NCBI GenBank assembly: GCA_041650895.1
Contig: JBAZKF010000001.1
Coordinates: 17,685-81,684 of the forward strand
DNA from: Patescibacteria group bacterium
Lineage (GTDB): Bacteria > Patescibacteriota > Patescibacteriia > 2-01-FULL-39-33
DNA length: 64,000 nt
Reading direction: 5' to 3'
Each line of letters starts with the position of its first letter. The stretch's first letter is position 1. Both the position numbers and the translations under genes were made by a program. The notes beneath the pieces are model-generated. The model worked only from the letters and a program-made list of their open reading frames with translations, was not told the origin of the DNA and ran no database searches. Below, one piece after another: positions 4,240-62,239 of this stretch.

Positions 4240-5019
4240 TTAGCTCAAGCTGTTTTTTATAAAATATAGCAAGGCTGACTTAAAGAAACGCCATTGATTA
4301 GTTACGACTTTTTGTTGCCCAAAGCTTTTTCCGCCGTAGTGGACGATTTTTGTTTCCGGCGTATAGATTATTTTGTAACCGGCTCGGCTGACGCGTCGGC
4401 AGAAGTCAACCTCCTCAAACCAGACAAAAAATCTTTCATCCAATAACCCGACTTTATCCAGAACTATGCGCGGAATGAGCATAAAAGCGCCCATCACCTG
4501 TTCTACTGCTTGTTCTTTCGTGTAATCGAAATCTTCAGCCAAGTAATGGCCGATTGATTTTAAATGAGGGAAGAGCTTAGGCAGTTTTAGGAGCATAAGG
4601 ATTACCGGCCAAAGAGTCGGCAAACGCCTGACTGAGGGTTGTAAACGGCCATCGGGATAAACCATTTGCACACCCAGAACTCCGCAGGTTGAATGACGTT
4701 TAGCGGCCGCCAATGATTTGCTTAAGGTGTCGGGAAATATTTCGGTGTCAGGATTAAGCAATAGAACATACTCCCCCGCCGCTTGCTTAATGGCCAGATT
4801 GTTGGCCCTAGCAAAGCCAAGATTCCTGTCACTGGCGATTAAGTGTGATTGGGGGAATCTTTTATTAACCATTTCCGTCGTGCCATCGCTGGAAGCGTTG
4901 TCCACGACAAAAACTTCCACAGTCAAGTCGCCTTGATTCCGGTAAATTGAGTCAAGGCATTTCTCCAATAGGTCTTTAACTTTATAGGAGACAATGATGA
5001 TGGAGAGTTGCGGTTTCAT
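4240..5019 (-). CDS. family 2 glycosyltransferase (alternative TTG start at 5061)
   Basis: MKPQLSIIIVSYK...VVDNASSDGT GT-A fold motifs; ATG at 5019 preceded by TGGTATAAT. Confidence 0.75.
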   Translation of the reverse strand: MKPQLSIIIVSYKVKDLLEKCLDSIYRNQGDLTVEVFVVDNASSDGTTEMVNKRFPQSHLIASDRNLGFARANNLAIKQAAGEYVLLLNPDTEIFPDTLSKSLAAAKRHSTCGVLGVQMVYPDGRLQPSVRRLPTLWPVILMLLKLPKLFPHLKSIGHYLAEDFDYTKEQAVEQVMGAFMLIPRIVLDKVGLLDERFFVWFEEVDFCRRVSRAGYKIIYTPETKIVHYGGKSFGQQKVVTNQWRFFKSALLYFIKNSLS

Positions 5020-29161: not shown

Positions 29162-29431
29162 ATGGCGGAGAACATCGGAATCAAGCGAAAAAGCGGACAG
29201 GTCAAAGATGGAAAATGGTTAGTGTTGACAGAAAGTACTGGTGAGCCGGGCGTGGGTTTTCGGCATAGTTGTGGCGCGGAAATTATGGCGCAACAAGTCG
29301 CTCGTCCCATTTGGGATGGGCCATTTCCCCTTTCTGGCAGTGGCCGGTGCAGTTATGAGAAAGTTCCTTATTGTCCACAATGCGAAGAGATACCAAACTA
29401 TCATGGCGCACCGATAACTCCTCGGAGTTAA
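29162..29431 (+). CDS. small Cys4 zinc-ribbon-like protein
   Basis: 89 aa, AAGGAAAGGA Shine-Dalgarno, HSCGAE...CPQCEE; followed by a strong terminator. Confidence 0.4.
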   Translation: MAENIGIKRKSGQVKDGKWLVLTESTGEPGVGFRHSCGAEIMAQQVARPIWDGPFPLSGSGRCSYEKVPYCPQCEEIPNYHGAPITPRS

Positions 29432-29457
29432 TTTTTCTAAATAAAGTACCAACTATG

Positions 29458-29487
29458 AACGGGATGACACTATCATCCCGTTTTTTT
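29458..29487 (+). terminator. intrinsic terminator
   Basis: ACGGGATGA-CACTA-TCATCCCGT followed by TTTTTTT. Confidence 0.6.
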
Positions 29488-29569
29488 ATTTGATATGTCG
29501 TAGATATTTGAATTAGTACGCGTTAGTTTTTTTATTTGAGTTAAGACAAAACAAAAATCACGTCCATAG

Positions 29570-29640
29570 CTCGGGGACAGGGGCTCGAACCCCGATTAAC
29601 GGCTTCAAAGGCCGCTGTCCTACCATTAGACGATCCCCGA
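29570..29640 (-). tRNA. tRNA-Gln (anticodon UUG)
   Basis: cloverleaf folded by hand: U1-A72 acceptor, D-arm GTCT/GGAC, anticodon loop CUUUGAA, T-loop TTCGAGC; 71 nt, no encoded CCA. Confidence 0.8.
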
Positions 29641-29712
29641 GTTATAGACGCGATTTTTCATTAACGCCTTATCTGGTTTTAATTATTTGCTTCGGGGCAA
29701 AGCCCCTGTCCA
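29623..29712. repeat. 90-bp direct repeat copy A (tRNA-Gln leader plus first 18 nt of the tRNA)
   Basis: one mismatch versus copy B; contains hairpin GGGGC-AAA-GCCCC. Confidence 0.8.
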
Positions 29713-29806
29713 GGGTTGGCGTCCAATCTGCCACTGGCAGATTGTCCGACGCTCGACTGCGTCTACCGATTGGTCTCGCTTCCAACCAGTCGCAGATTAC
29801 TGCGAC

Positions 29807-29896
29807 CCATTAGACGACCCCCGAGTTATAGACGCGATTTTTCATTAACGCCTTATCTGGTTTTAATTATTTGCTTCGGGGCAAAGCCCCTGTCCA
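29807..29896. repeat. 90-bp direct repeat copy B, heading a 94-nt structured non-tRNA insert
   Basis: same leader plus TCGGGGGTCGTCTAATGG, then perfect hairpins GTCGCAG-TAAT-CTGCGAC and CAATCTGC-CAGTG-GCAGATTG instead of a tRNA body. Confidence 0.8.
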
Positions 29897-29903
29897 AAAT
29901 GTT

Positions 29904-30026
29904 TTACTTATTGTAAGGCCGGCCAGTCACTTTGGTTTCAAACTTCTTTTTTTTGGCGCTTTTTTTATCTTCCAGTTTAACTAAGCGAGGCACTTTGATT
30001 TTCGGATCTCTTTTTCTTTTTGCCAT
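29904..30026 (-). CDS. possible 40-aa highly basic peptide
   Basis: MAKRKRDPKIKVPRLVKLEDKKSAKKKKFETKVTGRPYNK; no clear Shine-Dalgarno. Confidence 0.2.
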   Translation of the reverse strand: MAKRKRDPKIKVPRLVKLEDKKSAKKKKFETKVTGRPYNK

Positions 30027-30179
30027 ATGATTTTATTATTCTGAGACAAAATGGGATAATCTCGGATTGTGGAGATTATTGATTTTGCTTTTATTTTAAT
30101 TTTAACCTGTATTTGATTCTAACAAATTTATTGCCATTTGGCAAGATTTTGCCAAAAAAAAGAGCCCCCGTAACTCTAG

Positions 30180-31010
30180 TCTCACACCCATGAAACATTA
30201 CTATTTATTGGTGTGTGGCCGGTTGGCGGGGGGTATAAAGGAAGGTGCTATTTCGAGTAGTGGCGGGGATCGGGGCGCCCTTCTGGCATCTCGGCCGAGT
30301 CCGGAAACGGCTCCACGTGCATGCCCAATGCATGCGACAATTCTTGAGCCGTGACATGCGAGAGCTCCGCTAAACACCGCGCAGATGCCTATTTTACTAT
30401 CTCATTATGGCAGCGCGCGATTGACAGGTGCGGACCTTATTTCACAGAATCTCCGGATAGTTCGGGCCACATCTCGCGCCCCGATCCCCAAATTTTAGCC
30501 GGTGGTGATTATTCCTGAGGGGCCCGGCTTTGCCCCTAAGTACATCGTTTTCTCTTTGGCACGGGGTTTCACTCCGTTTTTTGGTGGCCGATTTCGTTAG
30601 GCCTTTTTCTGGGCCGGCTTAACGCACCGCTTTCACTAATGGTCGGTGCGCCTAACCATCTGGCAACATGGTCGGGATACTCCCAAATCGGGTAGTCCCC
30701 TGCTATATTTTTATTCAAGTTGCCAGTTCGTTAGCCTAGGTAACTACACGAATCCTACGGGATAGCGACTCATTATGAGCCCTCCAGTAATTTTGGCCGA
30801 CGTTGGCCACGCGCCATTCTAACTGTCCGGATGGTCGCCAAAGGCGAGCCCCGGAAAAAAACGATACTACTGCTGACTGTTAAGGAGCTTAGTGAGACGA
30901 GACGGAAGCGGCCCTTTGGGCCTAGGAATGGAACGATAATGGTTGGTTCCTCCACTTTCCGTCTCGTCTCACCTTGAGCTTCAATCATATCACATCGTGA
31001 ATATTTTGTC
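30180..31010. other. ~0.8-kb GC-rich, ORF-free segment with several perfect long-range inverted repeats (candidate large structured ncRNA or gene-less mobile-element relic)
   Basis: about 60% GC versus an AT-rich genome; stems GGGGATCGGGGCGC/GCGCCCCGATCCCC (14 bp, about 200 nt apart), GTGAGACGAGACGGAAAG/CTTTCCGTCTCGTCTCAC (18 bp), CTGGCAAC/GTTGCCAG, CGCACCG/CGGTGCG; dense stops in all frames. Confidence 0.4.
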
Positions 31011-31190
31011 AATAGCTTTATCCACAGGTTAACTATAAACAATTAAAATTTAATCTAAATTTAGCTAAAATAAATTAGATTAATTTATGATTAAAATACC
31101 GATAATCCGTTATGGGCGGACTTATCACAGTAAATGTAAGTTCAATGACAGGCTTGCTCCAATAGCGTCTATCAGTTAGAATGAAGTTAT

Positions 31191-31787
31191 ATGTCCGAAT
31201 CAAATATCAAAATTCTTATTGAAAAGTTTGCCAGATTTCCCTCAATTGGCCCAAAAACAGCCGAGAGGATGGTGTATTATCTGTTAAAACAAGCGCCGGA
31301 AAGGATGGATGAGTTGGCTTTGGCCATTTCTCAACTCAGAAATAGCGTTACCACCTGCAGTATTTGCTTCAATTTTAGCGAATCCAATCCTTGTCCGATC
31401 TGCGCCGATTCCAGGCGCGATCGTCGGGTCATTTGTATCGTGGCCAAACCGCAAGACATTTCGGCCATAGAGAAAACCGGTTCATACAATGGCGTTTATC
31501 ATGTCCTGGGTGGTAACATTAATCCGTTGGAGAACATCATGCCCGAGAACCTGCGGCTCAAGGAACTTTTAGCCAGGATTAAAGATAACGAGGTGTGCGA
31601 GTTGATTTTAGCTTTAAATCCTGATATGATCGGTGGGACCACTTCTATTTATCTGTCTAAATTGTTAAAGCAGTTCTCCCATGTGACAGTAACGCGTTTG
31701 GCGCGCGGTCTGCCCATGGGCGCCGATTTAGAGTATGCTGATGAAGTAACATTAGAAAGCGCTATCTCCGGCCGCAGGGAAGTATAA
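31191..31787 (+). CDS. recR: recombination protein RecR
   Basis: HhH N-terminus FPSIGPKTAERM, C4 zinc finger CSICFNFSESNPCPIC, Toprim domain. Confidence 0.9.
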   Translation: MSESNIKILIEKFARFPSIGPKTAERMVYYLLKQAPERMDELALAISQLRNSVTTCSICFNFSESNPCPICADSRRDRRVICIVAKPQDISAIEKTGSYNGVYHVLGGNINPLENIMPENLRLKELLARIKDNEVCELILALNPDMIGGTTSIYLSKLLKQFSHVTVTRLARGLPMGADLEYADEVTLESAISGRREV

Positions 31788-53779: not shown

Positions 53780-54036
53780 ACGACACTCCTTTCAATGTGC
53801 TGCTGCGCATTAGCCGAGGAACGCGCACAACCTCCTTATTCCCCGCCATTCAAGCAAGGAAACGACTTAGCCATACAGCTAAGAATTACTATATATTAGC
53901 ATATAGACATTATTTTGTCAAGTATTTTATCCACAATTAATCGAAATATTATGTATATTTACCTAAAATTAAACAAAAAAATGCCAGTAATTATTGGCAT
54001 TTTTATCGCAAATATTAATAATTCTATCTTTTCTTA

Positions 54037-54342
54037 CTATTTCTGCTTTTCCTGGTATTCTAACACTTTTTCCATCGGAGAAAGGCCGCCCAAAGCCATA
54101 TGAGGGAAGTAATTCCAAGCGTCAGTTATTGTTTCTAAAATATTACTTAATTCCGAGACATCACCGCCCCGGTCGAACCTAGCAATAATCGTCGACATAT
54201 CATCATTATCTTCTTCTTGATAAATGGCATCAAGAATATCTTCCAGTGCAAAGTCGCTCTCGGTTTCTGCAAGCAAATCAATAATGTCTTGTTGGATTGC
54301 TTCGCCTTCAGATAGGATTTGTTGTTGGGAAAGGGGTTGCAT
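54037..54342 (-). CDS. hypothetical acidic protein
   Basis: 101 aa, D/E-rich. Confidence 0.4.
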   Translation of the reverse strand: MQPLSQQQILSEGEAIQQDIIDLLAETESDFALEDILDAIYQEEDNDDMSTIIARFDRGGDVSELSNILETITDAWNYFPHMALGGLSPMEKVLEYQEKQK

Positions 54343-54603
54343 AATGATTTATTATAAAATATATACCACTTGAAAATGAAAAAGATTTTACGCCTGAAGA
54401 TTTTGCTTGGTATAATATGACAATAATAATTGCTGATAATAAAAAACATGACATCTCAAATGATGAGTTGAAGAACAGAGTCAAAGATTTCCTTTTATTT
54501 GCAATAAGATAATATTGAATACTAAAAATACCACGGCAAAACCGTGGTATTTTTGAAGCTAAATAATTGAGGGGACTCAGTCATTTGAATTAGCGTGTAT
54601 TGG

Positions 54604-54750
54604 CTGGAGGTTTTTAATAAAATCCGAACCGAATTTCAGAAAAGCTTGCCCTGAGCGAAGTCGAATGGGTCATAATCGGTCGGGCGGAACCTGCCTGCCG
54701 GCAAACAGGCGAAACATTTGGACGACTGAGGCGGAATTGCAATTTCCAAT
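54604..54750 (+). repeat. ~150-bp island repeat element R1
   Basis: about 90 nt near-identical to R2 (AAATCCGAACCGAATTTCAGAAAAGCTTGCCCTGAGCGAAGTCGAATGGGTCATAA...), shared 3' end GAAACATYTGGACGRCTGAGGCGRAATTGCAATTTCCAAT containing palindrome GAAATTGCAATTTC. Confidence 0.75.
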
Positions 54751-54775
54751 CTTTTAGTGATATTAATAATAGAAT

Positions 54776-55525
54776 CTAGAAATGTTCATTCGGTTTTTCT
54801 CTCAATTCATTCTTAATCCCATATTCGGGATGCTTCTTTATCCAGTCTGAAATGTCAGTCCATTTAAGGCCATGAAAACCAAATTGACCATTCCATTTGG
54901 CACCGTATTCTTTATTTTTTTCAAAACTGAATTTGTGCGCTAATTTAACTGGAGCGAATTTTATGCCTAAGTTTTCTAAATATTTACGTTTAATGACAGA
55001 AATAATCCAATCTTCATTTTCCGCATATTTGTGGCTTGGTGAATCTTCAATATTAATACTTGGATCATTTTGCAATATTTCTAGCAGTTTCTTGCTTCGC
55101 AGACTAAAACCGCCATTGCCAACAACCAACTTATCTTTTACCCATAATGGTGCACCAATATAATCGTATTTCAAATATTCATCATCCCAAGCAGTGGAAT
55201 TCAAAATAAAACCGTCATATTGAATAATCAAAACAAAATCAGTCTTTATATAATTATTCAACTCCTTGAGAATGAATTGCGAGTATTTTTTAATCGATTC
55301 TACGGGGTTGATTTTGATGACATTTTTATTATCGGAAGAAATTGATGATAATAATTTAATATCGGCAAATTCAAAATCTTTGCAACAAATTTCTGCGGCT
55401 TTTATAAGTCGATCAATATCAACACAGTCAAGACCAAACAGTGTTACATTTTTTAGTTTTTTCATTTCTATGGATTGATAAAATGTTTTTGAGTTCTGAA
55501 AATTGTAATTAGCTAACACTGACAC
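54776..55525 (-). CDS. hypothetical protein (GTG start at 55525; alternative ATG at 55465 giving MKKLKNVTLFGLDC...)
   Basis: 249-aa ORF in cassette between R1 and R2. Confidence 0.5.
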   Translation of the reverse strand: MSVLANYNFQNSKTFYQSIEMKKLKNVTLFGLDCVDIDRLIKAAEICCKDFEFADIKLLSSISSDNKNVIKINPVESIKKYSQFILKELNNYIKTDFVLIIQYDGFILNSTAWDDEYLKYDYIGAPLWVKDKLVVGNGGFSLRSKKLLEILQNDPSINIEDSPSHKYAENEDWIISVIKRKYLENLGIKFAPVKLAHKFSFEKNKEYGAKWNGQFGFHGLKWTDISDWIKKHPEYGIKNELREKPNEHF

Positions 55526-55588
55526 GGTCTCATAATAGTTATCTAAAAAATTATTGCCCCATCACGCCACTCACTATAGCTTTTGTAA

Positions 55589-56065
55589 TCATTTTTTAAT
55601 TGAATGCTTATCGGAAAATTTAGGGTTTGCAATGAATTCAGAAGTATCCGTATTGATAAATCCGATGATGTTTTCTGGAGAAATAACATTACTATCTTCC
55701 GTTTTAGAAAAAATATGTTCACTTGATGCCTTGATTGATCTTTCACGTGCTGAATATCCTCCAAAATCAGAAGAGTCGAATCCTTTGGGTACTGCAATTA
55801 GAATAATAATTGTTCTGCCACCATAATCCCAACCATCTAACTTGTGTAGCAAAGAATCTTGATTTTCTGGAATTCTACAGGCGATATCATGTATGGCGTT
55901 CCATTTGGTTCGAAGTCCTTTTTCAAGAATACTATCAGCTATTTCTCGATTTGAAACTCCATGACCCCAAATATCAACTGATTGTTGATATGTTTCCAAT
56001 GTTTTTAACAAATGGGTGTGTCGACTTTCAGAAGATTTTTTTTCAAACTTGTTCATAAATCTCAA
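55589..56065 (-). CDS. hypothetical protein
   Basis: 158-aa ORF preceded by upstream-element copy 2. Confidence 0.5.
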   Translation of the reverse strand: MRFMNKFEKKSSESRHTHLLKTLETYQQSVDIWGHGVSNREIADSILEKGLRTKWNAIHDIACRIPENQDSLLHKLDGWDYGGRTIIILIAVPKGFDSSDFGGYSARERSIKASSEHIFSKTEDSNVISPENIIGFINTDTSEFIANPKFSDKHSIKK

Positions 56066-56111
56066 GTTTATTTTACTATCTTGTTGTTAAAATATCAAAC
56101 AGTTCTAACGT

Positions 56112-56164
56112 CCACATTTCGGTATACAAAAATACCCCTAAAATAGGGGCATTTTGTCGCATCT
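56112..56164 (-). promoter_or_regulatory. conserved upstream element copy 2
   Basis: CACATTTCGGTATACAAAAATACCCCTAAAATAGGGGCATTTTGTCGCATCTG; hairpin CCCCTAAAATAGGGG. Confidence 0.5.
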
Positions 56165-56318
56165 GGAGGTCTTTAATCAAATCCGAACCGAATTTCAGAA
56201 AAGCTTGCCCTGAGCGAAGTCGAATGGGTCATAACCGGTCGGGCGGAATTCCCCCCCAAACCCCTCCTTCCGCCCGACCGAAACATCTGGACGGCTGAGG
56301 CGAAATTGCAATTTCCAA
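56162..56318 (+). repeat. ~150-bp island repeat element R2
   Basis: contains a perfect 12-bp hairpin GGTCGGGCGGAA-(TTCCCCCCCAAACCCCTCC loop region)-TTCCGCCCGACC. Confidence 0.75.
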
Positions 56319-56338
56319 TTTTTCTTTGGCGGCATTAA

Positions 56339-56773
56339 TTATATAATTTTATCAACCCACAGAACAGTGCCTTCTCTTTTAAATCCATATCTTTCGATAA
56401 ACTTAGAAAATAACTCCTGATCTTCGGCATTCACACAAAGCATAATATAAGTATATCCAAGATCTTTAACTTGCTTCAATCCTTCCTCTGTTAATTTTGC
56501 GGCCACTCCCAATCCGCGAGCGGATGGTGTCACGTAAAGATTTTCCCAAGTAATTTTCTTTGTTGGTATGTGAGCGGAATAAAAAGAAAAGCCAATAATT
56601 TCATTTTTTGTTTTTGCCACTAACAGAACATCACTAGGACTTTGACACCATTTTTTTAATTGTTCTTTACTCCAAAAAATTCCACTAGCACTAGCAAATT
56701 CTTTCTGTAAAGCACCTAGTTTATAAATCTCATCAATGTCCGTAATATTCATTCTAGATATTTGAAAATCCAT
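56339..56773 (-). CDS. GNAT family N-acetyltransferase
   Basis: acetyl-CoA binding motif region ...ARGLGVAAKLTEEGLKQVKDLGY...; 4 nt after the cyclodipeptide synthase gene. Confidence 0.8.
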   Translation of the reverse strand: MDFQISRMNITDIDEIYKLGALQKEFASASGIFWSKEQLKKWCQSPSDVLLVAKTKNEIIGFSFYSAHIPTKKITWENLYVTPSARGLGVAAKLTEEGLKQVKDLGYTYIMLCVNAEDQELFSKFIERYGFKREGTVLWVDKII

Positions 56774-56776
56774 ATA

Positions 56777-57478
56777 TTATTCGATATCGGCTATGCCTGT
56801 TTTATTTATAATTCTTAATTTATTCCTTAAACCATTATACTCATTACTTTTAATAATTTTTACTACTAATTCATCAAATTTACCTAATCCCGGATACAAA
56901 ATAACTGAATACAATTCACCACGATTAATAATCGAAACTCCATTCAAAAATAATGGCAATTCTTGTAGGACATAAAGAGCCACTGACTCGGCTCGATCTT
57001 TTGAAATAGTGCGTCCTCGTATTTTTAGCATTTCGTTAGAAATTTCCATTACCGAATTATAAAAAGCCTTTTGTTCAGAAAATTCCCTCATTAATACCTC
57101 TCGTTGTTTAACAAATTTTGGCGTTAAAGCATCATCATAGTTGGCGATAACAACCTTCTTTTGATCTTTTGCGGGCAATCTTGAGACGATTACTTCGACT
57201 TCTTGTCTTTTCTCATCTTCCATTTCGAAAGCCTTTTTTAATGATTGTGCTCTGCTTAAATTATCAATATACCTTAAATTAGAAACCTGAAGTCTCCCTG
57301 GGATTAAAATTAACAAGGATTTTTTAGTATGTATGAGGCCAAAATCAATAAGTTTTTCAAGATTATTTTTCGTGAACCATTTATTACCAAAACTTAAACC
57401 TATCCAAAGATTATATCTTTTTTTAAAGATATAATCTTTGGGAATTAATAATGTTTCTTTTATTTGAATTATTTCCAT
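56777..57478 (-). CDS. tRNA-dependent cyclodipeptide synthase (CDPS), XYP-type
   Basis: IGLSFGNKWF (catalytic Ser in the G-x-S-x-GN-x-x-F motif, compare AlbC IGISAGNSYF), LYVLQELPLF (AlbC NYVLAEAPLF; Tyr/Glu catalytic pair), SVILYPG (Y-P); about 233 aa as expected. Confidence 0.75.
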   Translation of the reverse strand: MEIIQIKETLLIPKDYIFKKRYNLWIGLSFGNKWFTKNNLEKLIDFGLIHTKKSLLILIPGRLQVSNLRYIDNLSRAQSLKKAFEMEDEKRQEVEVIVSRLPAKDQKKVVIANYDDALTPKFVKQREVLMREFSEQKAFYNSVMEISNEMLKIRGRTISKDRAESVALYVLQELPLFLNGVSIINRGELYSVILYPGLGKFDELVVKIIKSNEYNGLRNKLRIINKTGIADIE

Positions 57479-57514
57479 ATACGATTAATCTTATATGATC
57501 ATACCAAAATTATT

Positions 57515-57739
57515 TTATTCACAATAATAAAATACGCCACCATATTGATTTTTTTCTTGAAAGCTTAGGCTATCATAATCTTCAACACAGCTTCTAAATT
57601 TATCGTATTTATCTTCAGATTCATAATAATTATCTGACCACTCCTCAGCAGTCATACTTTCATATTTACCAATACTACAACCACTTAAAAACAGGAGAAA
57701 TAGTAATGACATAAATACAATGTAATATTTTTTTATCAT
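57515..57739 (-). CDS. small lipoprotein
   Basis: 74 aa; signal peptide with lipobox LSGC; acidic, 4 additional Cys. Confidence 0.5.
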   Translation of the reverse strand: MIKKYYIVFMSLLFLLFLSGCSIGKYESMTAEEWSDNYYESEDKYDKFRSCVEDYDSLSFQEKNQYGGVFYYCE

Positions 57740-57789
57740 AACAAATATACATTTTATTTTAGATTCAAACTAATATTATAAAATTAACT

Positions 57790-59604
57790 TTATTTAATCC
57801 CAGCCACTTTTTTTTCTTCGTCTGTCATTAGATGCGCGGGATTAATAGACTCCCACCAATAATTATTAAGACCTCTTTTTTGTATCGTTGTGATGTATTC
57901 AATTAATTTTAGTCTTACCTCAGTTTCTTGTAAATTCATTAATCCTGCAAGCTGTATACGAATATTTTTATCAAATAGAATTTTTTTTACGAATGGCATA
58001 ATTCTCTCTCCATAATATCTGCCAAAATCAGCCCATAAAGGTTCCCCATTATGCTCGGACAGTACAACAAGTAGGAAATTGGCCTGAAATTGAAAATTTT
58101 CAATTTTTCCATCCATTTTTGGTACTAATTCAATAAGCCAATCTTGATTTTTTAAATATTCCCTAATGTATTCATTCACTTTAGTTGAATGACCAGTCAG
58201 GGCACGAGTATAATGAAAATGATTATCTTCTAAAAAAGACATCGGTGGCTGATCAAAGTAATTTGGATTATCGAACTTAGTTTCAAGTAAAATTTTGAGT
58301 GGCGCATAATTATCTCTGGCTATACAAATAGTAGCTATAATGTATAAGATTTCAACAATTATAACTTCCGGAACCGCAATCAGAGAAATTAGACCGGATT
58401 TATTATTTGTAAGTTCAACTAAAGCTGTCAGATATTCACAGTATATTTTTATCTGATTTTTGTTGCCATATACTGAAATTGTAGCACCTAAATATATATA
58501 CTGATAACTACTCGCTTCCATGCGCGAAATAGCCTCTGGTATGCGATCCACATCCTGACCAATTTCCTGAAAAATTATTTCCCATTCCTTTTTTATTTTA
58601 GTGATTAATTTGTGGCACAATCTCTCAAAATTTAATATATTAATAGTTTCCACACTAGACCCGGAAGAACCAACAACAAAATTAATTGTTTCCTGCAAAA
58701 GTTTGTTTTTTTCATCCATCGTTAAATCAATCACTGGCACAGAAAAAATAGCATTTTGTAATTCTGGCGTTTTTGGTATCTCAATGGTTTCGGGCTTTAA
58801 ATGCAACCTCTTTTTAAACACTGGGAGAGTGAGATTACCCTCTAATTTACCTAACATGGTTGGTGTTTGAGTGTGTTTCCATTTGTCCCTAGCACGAGAG
58901 CTTACACCTTCTGCGATTGGACTAAAAATGTCTGTAGCTGAAAAATATTCACTAGGACGATTTTTTTGGAGTTCATCAAGTACATAATATGTAAATAAAC
59001 CATTTTTAAGTTCAGGATCTTCGATTGAAAGTTCATCATCTTTACTGGCAGTAAAAATCATACTACCATTACCAATTACTGTATTTGAAAATGATTTAAT
59101 ATTTTTAAATCCCTTGGTATTGGGGATTGGGTAATTTTTGGCATTTTTACTTACTGACCCACTAAAACAAGAATCAATAAAAATTAAATTTACTTTTGAT
59201 TTTAGGGATGTGAAAATATTTTTTATATCCTCTACTGATAAACAAGTATTTACAATATCATGAGTTGCATCATACGGCACTAAAAAGCTAAGTCCTGAAT
59301 TAATATTATTAGGATCATCAACTAATGCTCCGTGACCGGAATAGAAAAAGAAGAAAACGTCATCTGACTCGATATTATCCAGTAATTCTTTTCCTAACGC
59401 AGTCTTGATTTCTGAAAGAGTCGCCTCTTCATCAACTAAAAGTTTATTATACCCAATATTGCTAATATTTTGTTGAAATAATGAGAAAAACTCTGTTGCA
59501 TCTTTTTCTGCAAACGCTAGATTTGTAATTTGATTCTTATGCTTAGAAATTCCAATCGCAACAATATGATGTTTCATGAAATTAATTATTTTAGTAATTC
59601 CCAC
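57790..59604 (-). CDS. caspase-like (peptidase C14) domain protein with ~350-aa unknown C-terminal domain
   Basis: HIVAIGISKH...FFFYSGHGA (His) ... LIFIDSCFSG (Cys) dyad; GTG start with GGGAG Shine-Dalgarno, alternative ATG at 59577. Confidence 0.7.
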   Translation of the reverse strand: MGITKIINFMKHHIVAIGISKHKNQITNLAFAEKDATEFFSLFQQNISNIGYNKLLVDEEATLSEIKTALGKELLDNIESDDVFFFFYSGHGALVDDPNNINSGLSFLVPYDATHDIVNTCLSVEDIKNIFTSLKSKVNLIFIDSCFSGSVSKNAKNYPIPNTKGFKNIKSFSNTVIGNGSMIFTASKDDELSIEDPELKNGLFTYYVLDELQKNRPSEYFSATDIFSPIAEGVSSRARDKWKHTQTPTMLGKLEGNLTLPVFKKRLHLKPETIEIPKTPELQNAIFSVPVIDLTMDEKNKLLQETINFVVGSSGSSVETINILNFERLCHKLITKIKKEWEIIFQEIGQDVDRIPEAISRMEASSYQYIYLGATISVYGNKNQIKIYCEYLTALVELTNNKSGLISLIAVPEVIIVEILYIIATICIARDNYAPLKILLETKFDNPNYFDQPPMSFLEDNHFHYTRALTGHSTKVNEYIREYLKNQDWLIELVPKMDGKIENFQFQANFLLVVLSEHNGEPLWADFGRYYGERIMPFVKKILFDKNIRIQLAGLMNLQETEVRLKLIEYITTIQKRGLNNYWWESINPAHLMTDEEKKVAGIK

Positions 59605-60206: not shown

Positions 60207-61694
60207 ATGAAATACTTTCTTTACGCCCGCAAGTCGACAGACGAAGAGGAGCGTCAAGTCCTTTCAATTGAAGCCCAGCTCGCAGAGCTGAAGGAGTTAG
60301 CCGCCAAAGAAAAATTGGAAATTGCTGACTCGCTCTGCGAGTCTAAAACCGCCAAAGAACCAGGCCGAAAAATTTTCGGCGAAATGCTCGCTCGGATTGA
60401 AAAAGGTGAAGCCGACGGAATTTTAGCGTGGCACCCAGATAGATTGGCCAGAAATAGCGTTGATGGTGGGAAGATTATCTACATGGTGGATATTGGCCAG
60501 ATTAAAACGCTGAAATTCCCGACTTTTTGGTTTGAGAATACTCCGCAAGGTAAATTCATGCTCAATATCGCTTTCGGCCAGAGCAAATACTATATTGATA
60601 ATTTAAGCGAAAATGTTAAGCGCGGATTCAGACAAAAGTTAAGGCGTGGCGAATATCCCAACAAAGCGCCTATTGGCTATCTTAATGACCGCATGGCTAA
60701 AACCGTGCTTATTGATCCTCTGCGCGCCAAGCTGATAATCAAGATGTTTGAGATGTACAGCACGGGAGAATTTTCGCTTAAATTTCTAAAAGATAAGTTT
60801 TGCGATATCGGTCTGACCAGTAAGCGAGGAAAAATCCTGACTGTCGGCATGATTTCTAATATATTGAGCAATCCCTTTTATTGCGGAGTATTCAAGTTTA
60901 ATGGCGAAATATACCAAGGCAAGTACGAGCCGATTATTTCCAAGAAGCTTTTTGATGAAGTTCAGGCGGTAATGCGGGATCGCGGCCGGCCGCTCGGGCA
61001 AGACAAGCACGACTACGCATTTACAGGACTAATGAAATGCAAATGCGGCGCCTGCATTACCGCTGAACGGCAAAAAGGCCATATCTATTATCGCTGTACG
61101 AAAAAGCTCGGAGCCTGCGATGAAAAGTATATCCGCGAAGAAAACTTGCTGGAGCAATTCTATGGCCTTTTTCAAAAAGCTTCTTTGTCTGATGACTGGA
61201 TTGACAAGATGCTCGCCAAACTGGACGAGGAACAGAAAAGCGATATGAAGTCATCTATTGGTCTGATTGATGAGGTTAAAGCGCAAATTGGTGGCCTAGA
61301 GAGCAAGTTAGACAAGTTATTAGATGACCGATTAGAAGGGTTATTGGACAAGGACGACTATTTGCGCAAGAAAGAACAGCTCATCAATCAAAAAATCACT
61401 TTTGAGGACAAAATCCAGTCAATCAGGCAAACAGGAAATAATTGGCTCGAACCGATGAGAGAATTCCTTTTCGCCAATAAACAAACCAAAAAAGTCGCCA
61501 ATGGCGGCGACCTTCTAGAGATTAGAGCATTTATTAAAAAAATCGGCTCGAACTTTATTTTGCAAGGCAAAAAATTTGAATTTAAGCCAAAAAACGGTTG
61601 GAATTCTGTTTTAAAAAATGAAAAGCGAAACTGGCTGCGGGACAGGGACTCGAACCCCGATACCACCCTCCAGAGGGGCGTGTCCTACCATTAG
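60207..61694 (+). CDS. large serine recombinase (resolvase/invertase catalytic domain plus recombinase and zinc-ribbon/coiled-coil domains)
   Basis: N-terminal YARKSTDEEERQVLSIEAQ (catalytic Ser region), RLARN, CxxC...CxxC zinc ribbon; 3' end runs through the right IR and antisense into the tRNA. Confidence 0.85.
   Translation: MKYFLYARKSTDEEERQVLSIEAQLAELKELAAKEKLEIADSLCESKTAKEPGRKIFGEMLARIEKGEADGILAWHPDRLARNSVDGGKIIYMVDIGQIKTLKFPTFWFENTPQGKFMLNIAFGQSKYYIDNLSENVKRGFRQKLRRGEYPNKAPIGYLNDRMAKTVLIDPLRAKLIIKMFEMYSTGEFSLKFLKDKFCDIGLTSKRGKILTVGMISNILSNPFYCGVFKFNGEIYQGKYEPIISKKLFDEVQAVMRDRGRPLGQDKHDYAFTGLMKCKCGACITAERQKGHIYYRCTKKLGACDEKYIREENLLEQFYGLFQKASLSDDWIDKMLAKLDEEQKSDMKSSIGLIDEVKAQIGGLESKLDKLLDDRLEGLLDKDDYLRKKEQLINQKITFEDKIQSIRQTGNNWLEPMREFLFANKQTKKVANGGDLLEIRAFIKKIGSNFILQGKKFEFKPKNGWNSVLKNEKRNWLRDRDSNPDTTLQRGVSYH
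61563..61637. repeat. 75-bp perfect inverted repeat, right copy, abutting the tRNA-Gln 3' end
   Basis: CAAGGCAAAAAATTTGAATTTAAGCCAAAAAACGGTTGGAATTCTGTTTTAAAAAATGAAAAGCGAAACTGGCTG. Confidence 0.85.
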
Positions 61695-61705
61695 ACGATC
61701 CCGCA
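61635..61705 (-). tRNA. tRNA-Gln (anticodon CUG)
   Basis: hand-folded cloverleaf; U1-A72; anticodon loop CUCUGGA; T-loop TTCGAGT; about 80% identical to the tRNA-Gln(UUG) at 29.6 kb. Confidence 0.8.
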
Positions 61706-61790: not shown

Positions 61791-61799
61791 TATAACACT

Positions 61800-62150
61800 G
61801 AGTATGACGGATAGTTACTCTTTGGCCTTAGGCCGAAGAGAGGAAAGTCCGAACACCCTTTTCGGCGCAAGCCGGAATGTCGCGGTAATGGGTAACGCCC
61901 ACCCGGACAGTCGTAAGGCTGGCCGAGGACCAGTTCCACAGAGACAATACTAACGAGATGCGCAAGTATTTCGCGAAAGGTGAAAAGTGTAGCGAAGTAT
62001 TAAGTTGAGAGTGAGATATCTCCTCAAATTAATGCCACCCTACTCAACTCCCAGCGATGGGCAGTTGTGGTAAACTCTACCTGGTGCAACCCCGTTTCGG
62101 GGGCTTGATCATGCCGGTAACGGCAATGACAGACAGATGACTATCGTTTT
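61800..62150 (+). ncRNA. rnpB: RNase P RNA (bacterial type A-like)
   Basis: universally conserved GAGGAAAGTCCG(AAC)... P4 strand, GGTAACGCC, terminal P1 pairing GGATAGT/ACTATC, followed by T-run. Confidence 0.7.
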
Positions 62151-62206
62151 TTACGGCCGCAAGGTTAGTAAAAAATACAGAATTCGGCTTATAGTCATAT
62201 TCAGTT

Positions 62207-62239
62207 AAAAAATACTTCGCTGCTGCGAGGTATTTTTTT
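62207..62239. terminator. bidirectional intrinsic terminator between rnpB and rnhA
   Basis: A6-TACTTCGC-TGCT-GCGAGGTA-T7. Confidence 0.6.

Follow-up and report, generated by a model that had tools for sequence, protein, structure and literature searches.

A predicted gene for a large, highly structured non-coding RNA beside recR in a Candidatus Buchananbacteria lineage

A 0.8-kb segment, at positions 30180-31010 of a 64,000-nt stretch of DNA from a Patescibacteria group bacterium (assembly GCA_041650895.1, contig JBAZKF010000001.1; the whole stretch is called here the window, and its numbering is used throughout), is probably an independent minus-strand gene for a stable and highly structured non-coding RNA that belongs to no described family. 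The RNA would be about 826 nt long in the window and about 980 nt in its most divergent relative. The preliminary description of this DNA had raised two possibilities, one being a large structured non-coding RNA and the other a relic, without genes, of some foreign element. The former is supported by a promoter and a terminator conserved on one strand, conservation above that of synonymous sites, compensatory changes of base pairs among three to four sequences, a low folding z-score and the lack of any coding signal save a 9-codon open reading frame (ORF). So far the predicted gene has been found in only four species-level lineages, within one small group of ultra-small groundwater bacteria: the window, two metagenome-assembled genomes (MAGs) assigned to Candidatus Buchananbacteria or Patescibacteria (L001 and L002), and the Logan run SRR27710297 (the fourth lineage in what follows), studied as a composite of the overlapping contigs L081 and L092.

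Few bacterial RNAs exceed about 500 nt and have a complex, conserved fold. Each class known to date (rRNA, RNase P RNA, group II introns, OLE, GOLLD, and ROOL) has proved to be a ribozyme, to scaffold a ribonucleoprotein or to form an unexpected assembly made of RNA only. The bacteria of the Candidate Phyla Radiation (CPR) have tiny genomes (about 1 Mb in the present lineage) that leave little room for spare DNA, and their non-coding RNAs have hardly been explored; a literature search on large non-coding RNAs of CPR bacteria found nothing.

The transcription signals point to the minus strand for the predicted RNA. A sigma-70-type promoter at 31012-30984 (TTGACA, 17 nt, TATGAT, with a TG-extended -10 element; 11 of 12 positions match) is the best sigma-70-like site within 29400-31400. 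All four lineages retain the two hexamers, the 17-nt spacing and the TG, whereas the letters of the spacer vary; in the fourth lineage the promoter is TTGACA-17-TAATAT, also with the TG. At the other end, a hairpin (30233-30164) followed by eight U residues (30161-30154) resembles an intrinsic terminator and lies directly before the next promoter. This 3′ end, as well as the promoter, is invariant in the window, L001 and L002. In the fourth lineage a different canonical hairpin, CCCTCTCATC...GATGAGAGGG, with a 10-bp GC stem and a run of seven T, occupies the same position before the next promoter; that the terminator keeps its position although its sequence has been replaced is a good indication of which way transcription runs. 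On the plus strand, the promoter scan and the homolog alignment gave no conserved promoter or terminator. Transcription is predicted to start about 7 nt downstream of the near-consensus promoter, beside a DnaA box, and to end at the hairpin and U-run, just before the promoter of the next gene. This would give a multi-domain primary transcript covering 30154..30980, its exact ends being estimated from the two signals. The conserved unit extends from about 30154 to 31026, that is, slightly past both ends of the segment.

The DnaA box is perfect (TTATCCACA, 31018-31026). It stands 5 nt upstream of the -35 element, between the divergent promoters of the RNA and of recR, overlaps a weak -35-like site of recR, and is invariant in the four lineages. 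It is not present upstream of recR in L024, a Buchananbacteria MAG that lacks the RNA gene. The expression of the RNA may be tied to DnaA, although the link is putative.

Homologous segments occupy the same place in L001 and L002, with 75-81% identity. The RecR proteins of these two MAGs are 88-90% identical to that of the window, and that of the fourth lineage is 88% identical, while the next relatives reach at most 66%; by its RecR the window belongs to Candidatus Buchananbacteria. The window segment is also 100% identical to a Logan contig from a separate assembly (L091), and L082 and L084 coincide with L002. In the three close species, the RNA (75-81% identity) is better conserved than the four-fold degenerate sites of recR (52-67%). 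The preliminary description had allowed for an absence of conservation in relatives; homologs in three other species-level relatives speak otherwise. The pattern of change is that of a non-coding sequence. Substituted columns fall 69/82/79 by phase, with no codon periodicity, and of the 49 gap runs only 8 have a length divisible by three. Stops interrupt every frame, as had been noticed at the outset, with 8-16 per frame on both strands and a longest open stretch of 78 codons; the ORFs of the segment have no match in Pfam. On these four grounds a protein-coding gene or pseudogene was rejected. The columns that pair in the predicted fold are more often invariant than the unpaired ones (76% vs 40%).

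The segment is rich in G and C, though less so than the earlier figure of about 60%: the measured content is 52.3%, against 42.5% in the window, and the richest sub-stretch (30210-30660) reaches 56%. It still tops all 831-nt intervals of the window, at about +2.4 standard deviations. The description of the segment as highly palindromic holds, since perfect inverted repeats are far above chance: there are 12, 8, 4, and 1 inverted k-mer pairs at k = 10, 12, 14, and 16, compared with means of 0.4, 0.04, 0, and 0 in 200 dinucleotide shuffles. Three inverted repeats had been named before. The 14-bp one is a perfect 14-nt pair, GGGGATCGGGGCGC, at 30265-30278 and 30476-30489, 1 nt away from the coordinates first given. 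The one reported as 18 bp exists and encloses a hairpin, but consists of 16 perfect bp (GTGAGACGAGACGGAA, 30892-30907 and 30957-30972) in a longer imperfect helix; the enclosed hairpin is GGCCCTTTGGGCC at 30910-30922. The third is real as named, with CTGGCAAC at 30660-30667 and GTTGCCAG at 30719-30726. The folding energy of the segment corresponds to z = -7.3 on the plus strand and z = -6.3 on the minus strand, and that of the predicted transcript to z = -8.8, while eight control intervals of the same length from the window range from -1.9 to +0.15.

The RNAalifold consensus of the three-species alignment comprises 218 pairs, with 94.9% of the cells paired. Both sides have changed in 20 of the 218 pairs, compared with 9.3±2.2 in shuffled alignments (none of 500 reaches 20) and 2-4 in slid controls. 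The fourth sequence adds further compensatory changes; for this comparison the first 550 columns at the 5′ end were used, and the closing helix of the central domain was read by hand, because MAFFT misaligns the 3′ half. The helices kept when the fourth lineage is included are the 5′ hairpin, two hairpins of the core, the CUGGCAAC/GUUGCCAG helix with its inner hairpin, and a GGGGC...GCCCC hairpin. Covariation among homologous regions, a check suggested by the preliminary description, thus yields compensatory pairs above the shuffled expectation, from three to four sequences.

The predicted fold, all on the minus strand, would have at least four modules: a long 5′ hairpin, a core, a central domain, and the 3′ hairpin. 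The 5′ hairpin (30886..30976) is branched at its top in the consensus fold, and GGCCC-UUU-GGGCC forms one of the branches; its basal helix is kept in the four lineages through changes of A-U to G-C, G-C to A-U, and C-G to U-A. The core would combine a block that carries GGAGG and a mini-ORF with the CUGGCAAC/GUUGCCAG helix. In the four-lineage comparison this block (30744..30786) is the most conserved part, and it folds into two small hairpins. The helix (30660..30726) is invariant in its outer part in the four lineages and surrounds a variable inner hairpin with five compensatory pairs. Further on, a nearly invariant block in the four lineages, GAAAACGAUGUACUUAGGGGC-AAAGCCGG-GCCCC (30519..30554), forms a hairpin with a CCGG-containing loop; its AACGAU may tentatively be assigned a long-range pairing with AUCGUUUU at 30855-30865, which appears in the four-sequence consensus only. 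The central domain (30265..30489, about 225 nt) is closed by a 14-15-bp helix that corresponds to the 14-bp inverted repeat. Its interior is larger in the fourth lineage (about 290 nt), and the closing helix shows three double changes between that lineage and the window. Conserved cores would in this way be joined by fast-changing peripheral stems, the pattern of other large "ornate" bacterial RNAs.

Several observations weigh against a structured RNA gene. None of the adjacent genes stands out as encoding a protein partner. The RNA gene is absent between the same two genes in relatives with a RecR identity of 66% or less, which means that the wider group can do without it. Divergence is quicker in the RNA than in the proteins encoded next to it, to the point that only about one third of the RNA of the fourth lineage aligns by nhmmer. 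With four lineages, one of them partly alignable, the covariation statistics are weak, and are supportive rather than conclusive. Finally, folding leaves the strand undecided: G.U and A.C combinations number 16 vs 11 in the shared helices, and the alifold energies of the two strands are nearly equal (-230 vs -228 kcal/mol). Regarding the strand, one pair of the central closing helix appears as G-C (window), G.U (L001 and L002) or A-U (fourth lineage), a series in keeping with an RNA helix from the minus strand; a number of small conserved hairpins likewise contain G.U pairs, which the plus strand would turn into A.C.

The mini-ORF of the core raises the question of whether the transcript is also a messenger. 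At 30786-30744 on the minus strand, UGGAGGG is followed after 7 nt by AUG AGU CGC UAU CCC GUA GGA UUC GUG UAG, which would encode MSRYPVGFV. A dual-function RNA, in which ribosome loading or the peptide is central, as in RNAIII/hld or in leader-peptide sensors, seems rather unlikely, even though it is the alternative with most in its favour. This is the only ORF of at least six codons on either strand with start and stop conserved in the three close species. In these species all of its five variable columns fall at synonymous third codon positions, TAG/TAA included, and no other gap-free 30-column interval of the alignment is phased in the same manner. The fourth lineage retains the length of nine codons (MSCYFVGYT) and a GGAGG similar to a Shine-Dalgarno sequence 9 nt upstream; GGAGG-type Shine-Dalgarno sequences are found at 12 of 49 genes of this genome, and the block is the best-conserved portion of the RNA. 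Against this reading, four of the nine residues differ in the fourth lineage in spite of its 88% identical RecR, and the nucleotide changes are distributed 3/3/2 by codon position, which indicates that the peptide is not conserved. The substitutions in the block preserve its small hairpins through changes from C-G to U.G, so that RNA structure alone can explain its conservation. The phasing statistic concerns five columns, has a p of roughly 0.004-0.01 and was noticed post hoc. Furthermore, nine residues are very few for a functional peptide, and no gene that a leader peptide could regulate lies between the mini-ORF and the terminator. Translation of the mini-ORF is possible, and is not needed to explain the data.

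The distribution of the gene bears on the second proposal of the preliminary description, a relic of a foreign element. The search followed four routes, all ending at the four lineages named above: a GTDB scan by means of RecR (80 loci), all RecR clusters of at least 86% identity among 5.8 billion clusters, all members of the cluster of a neighbouring 40-aa ORF, and a metagenome scan with the invariant 18-mer GTTTAGCGGAGCTCTCGC, which returned two lineages already known and six chance matches. A profile nhmmer search and a covariance model of the core (R1, 30658-30790), run over the 0.92 Mb of the 80 related RecR loci and the rest of the window, detected no further copy; in the 0.92 Mb the model recovers only the four known ones. 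The GC-rich, ORF-free stretches in other RecR loci are tRNA clusters. In L024, whose RecR is 58% identical, 138 AT-rich nt separate the promoter of the 40-aa ORF from recR; the gene was either gained in the ancestor of the small clade or lost elsewhere.

It seems quite improbable that the segment is non-functional, GC-richer foreign DNA which entered the ancestor of the clade at a site between the 40-aa ORF and recR and is now decaying. This idea draws on the short, AT-rich spacer of L024, the lack of copies in the other RecR loci, a GC content 10 points over that of the genome, and a fast turnover with large indels. Loci adjacent to tRNA genes are common integration sites, and the segment lies in such a setting. 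On the contrary, a decaying insert would hardly keep a near-consensus promoter and a terminator in four lineages, exceed synonymous sites in conservation, or preserve its helices by compensatory changes. No integrase, transposase, target duplication or terminal repeats flank the segment, and no donor was detected in the phage, plasmid, IMG/VR or metagenome scans. In particular, blastn against phage (50,697 records) and plasmid collections gave no related DNA, and four motif scans of IMG/VR gave none or chance matches only; an origin from phages or plasmids has no support in these searches. What stands of the relic proposal is the absence of the segment from the locus in more distant relatives; its decay is disfavoured, as the segment looks constrained where it is present.

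The locus comprises recR, the 40-aa ORF, tRNA-Gln, and a UvrD-like helicase. The recR gene (31191-31787, plus strand) lies beyond the promoter end of the segment. On the minus strand, downstream of the segment, the order is a boundary promoter outside the RNA (30144-30116, TTGCCA-17-TAGAAT), the basic 40-aa ORF (30026-29904), a repeated leader, and tRNA-Gln(UUG) at 29640-29570. The segment had been placed between a duplicated tRNA leader and recR; these are indeed the flanks, with the 40-aa ORF intervening before the leader repeat. The orientation of the segment, directly upstream of the 40-aa ORF and tRNA-Gln, and the position of its terminator right before them might suggest a long cis-acting leader or attenuator, with the upstream promoter reading through a regulated terminator into this unit. 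Such an arrangement is very unlikely. The downstream unit has its own conserved promoter, which serves relatives without the segment too, as is seen in L024. The hairpin with U7-U8 looks constitutive and there is no conserved anti-terminator pairing. Moreover, 800 nt far exceeds known bacterial leaders.

The relationship with known RNA families was examined with cmscan against Rfam 15 (4227 families), at the gathering threshold for the whole window and at E<=10 for 29300-31300, 30120-31030, and the L001 and L002 homologs. No family matched the segment, including GOLLD, ROOL, OLE, transfer-messenger RNA (tmRNA), signal recognition particle (SRP) RNA, 6S RNA, RNase P RNA, and group II introns; the few weak matches at E<=10 differ between sequences and are inconsistent noise. 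The cmscan check suggested at the outset therefore places no known family at the segment. The earlier judgement, made by eye, that the segment is not RNase P RNA, tmRNA, SRP RNA or rRNA agrees with Rfam, with ARAGORN, which reports no tmRNA, and with the location of RNase P RNA elsewhere. That RNase P RNA is of class A, at 61799-62207 (137.8 bits), and has several insertions with respect to the model; a second tRNA-Gln, with anticodon CUG (61632-61705), adjoins it on the opposite strand. In the related Buchananbacteria locus of L024, a SAM-I riboswitch is found at 4740-4845 (64.6 bits), a sign that standard RNAs of this group are within reach of the Rfam models.

GOLLD and ROOL RNAs often lie next to tRNA genes, usually in phage or prophage DNA. 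Like GOLLD (RF01998) and ROOL (RF03087), described in PMC12286853, the predicted RNA would have hundreds of nucleotides, a stable multi-domain fold, a stand-alone unit, a tRNA neighbour (tRNA-Gln, about 0.5 kb away), and conserved cores with variable stems. The kinship with these RNAs raised in the preliminary description found no support, as their models do not match the window, L001 or L002 even at E<=10, nor at any other threshold tried. The locus is chromosomal, has no phage or prophage genes nearby and no phage or IMG/VR matches, and the gene is restricted to four CPR lineages. OLE RNA (RF01071) is likewise large (about 600 nt), structured, presumably abundant and provided with conserved blocks of its own, and works as a ribonucleoprotein scaffold, a role that the present RNA may share; the present RNA differs in the lack of a model match and of an adjacent oapA/B/C-like gene, and in its host, a CPR bacterium and not an extremophilic Firmicute. 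The RNAIII of Staphylococcus aureus, which encodes delta-haemolysin, is also a structured RNA of hundreds of nucleotides with its own promoter and terminator and an embedded short ORF led by a Shine-Dalgarno sequence. In this case the resemblance is an analogy only, given that there is no sequence or model similarity, the ORF spans only nine codons, the fourth lineage does not preserve its peptide, and the repeated C-rich loops that RNAIII uses for target pairing are missing. With the housekeeping RNAs (tmRNA, SRP, 6S, and RNase P RNA) the predicted RNA has in common that it is richer in GC than the genome as a whole, has a strong promoter, and closes a domain by pairing 5′ with 3′ segments; nevertheless, it lacks Rfam and ARAGORN matches, is 2-4 times too long, and is absent from the same locus in sister lineages.

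Several specific candidates were rejected as well. A tmRNA, which would have tRNA-like acceptor and T-arm ends and a tag-peptide reading frame, is discarded by the negative ARAGORN and Rfam results in the window. A mimic of the tRNA acceptor or of an RNase P substrate had been suggested by the GCCA that follows the 15-bp closing helix in the window, but the fourth lineage does not keep this GCCA. An ORF-less group II intron has no Intron_gpII or group-II-D1D4 match at E<=10, and the unit has its own promoter. In a miniature inverted-repeat transposable element with 14-bp terminal inverted repeats (30265-30489) the arms would be fixed, whereas here they covary from G-C to G.U to A-U.

Of all the alternatives, the least probable is a diverged member of a known large RNA family (GOLLD, ROOL, OLE, tmRNA, SRP, 6S, or an ORF-less group II intron) or a DNA site (origin, terminus or cruciform): the tRNA neighbour, the adjoining DnaA box, and a peak of the cumulative GC skew near 29.5 kb are compatible with it, while the absence of consistent Rfam matches in the three sequences and of a tmRNA in ARAGORN, the RNase P RNA gene elsewhere, and the many conserved helices with G.U pairs, equivalent to A.C mismatches on the other strand and weak in DNA, are all against it. 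Regarding a replication origin or terminus, the window holds three perfect DnaA boxes, none of them clustered around 31018-31026, and almost every gene, whether to the left or to the right of 30 kb, lies on the minus strand, which means that the direction of replication does not switch at the locus; with neither a cluster of boxes nor an orientation switch, the locus is not an origin.

Other features of the neighbourhood deserve mention in their own right. The 40-aa ORF (MAKRKRDPKIKVPRLVKLEDKKSAKKKKFETKVTGRPYNK; NCBI MFA5124248.1, locus tag WC473_00260) is very basic and matched no Pfam family. Among the four lineages with the RNA its identity is complete or at least 90%, and in other Buchananbacteria without the large RNA it is 68-73%. 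Between this ORF and the tRNA gene, at 29710-29806 on the minus strand, lies a structured RNA motif of about 95 nt with no Rfam match and no similarity to the 0.8-kb RNA. Other copies are found in L001 (4538-4636), L024 (5585-5681), L077 (3473-3556), L004 (3706-3805), L016 (3194-3288), L028 (3183-3278), and L017 (3827-3922). In seven of the eight loci the motif shares the orientation of a tRNA-Gln(UUG) or tRNA-Lys(UUU) gene and lies 40-75 nt upstream of it. Before the motif stands a copy of the initial 19-20 nt of that same tRNA, up to the GG of the D-loop, and after it a sequence similar to the 3′ strand of the D-stem, so that the motif looks like a D-loop insertion in a truncated upstream copy of the tRNA. 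RNAalifold gives 23 pairs for the eight sequences, 15 of them with compensatory changes, and the motif may be a new tRNA-linked RNA element. In the window it is flanked by a 90-nt direct repeat, 99% identical (29623-29712 and 29807-29896), made up of the tRNA-Gln leader and the first 19 nt of the tRNA. The same duplication is present in L001. In L002 there is a single copy without the motif, a state consistent with deletion by recombination between the 90-nt repeats. Elsewhere in the window, an AT-rich island at about 54000-59500 has a GC content of 27-38%, vs 42.5% for the window, and a strongly negative GC skew. The composition of the RNA segment, which the preliminary description proposed to compare with it, is the opposite, and BLAST finds no similarity between them.

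The gene for a structured non-coding RNA remains the favoured explanation, and is rated as a new family among the large structured bacterial RNAs. Its product would act as an RNA, not as a messenger or a DNA site, and the best guess for its role is a scaffold for a ribonucleoprotein or RNA-only assembly, which may be coupled to ribosome binding at the mini-ORF. A more elaborate proposal, held tentatively and with slightly less than even confidence, is that of an undescribed class of ornate RNAs of 0.8-1.0 kb in a Candidatus Buchananbacteria lineage, with a strong promoter by a DnaA box, a ribosome-binding site and a 9-codon minicistron in the core, working as an RNA machine or scaffold coupled to ribosome loading. 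The narrow distribution and the lack of a functional clue limit the immediate impact of the finding. Nonetheless, for a genome of about 1 Mb to retain an RNA gene of 0.8 kb would suggest a function particular to this lineage.

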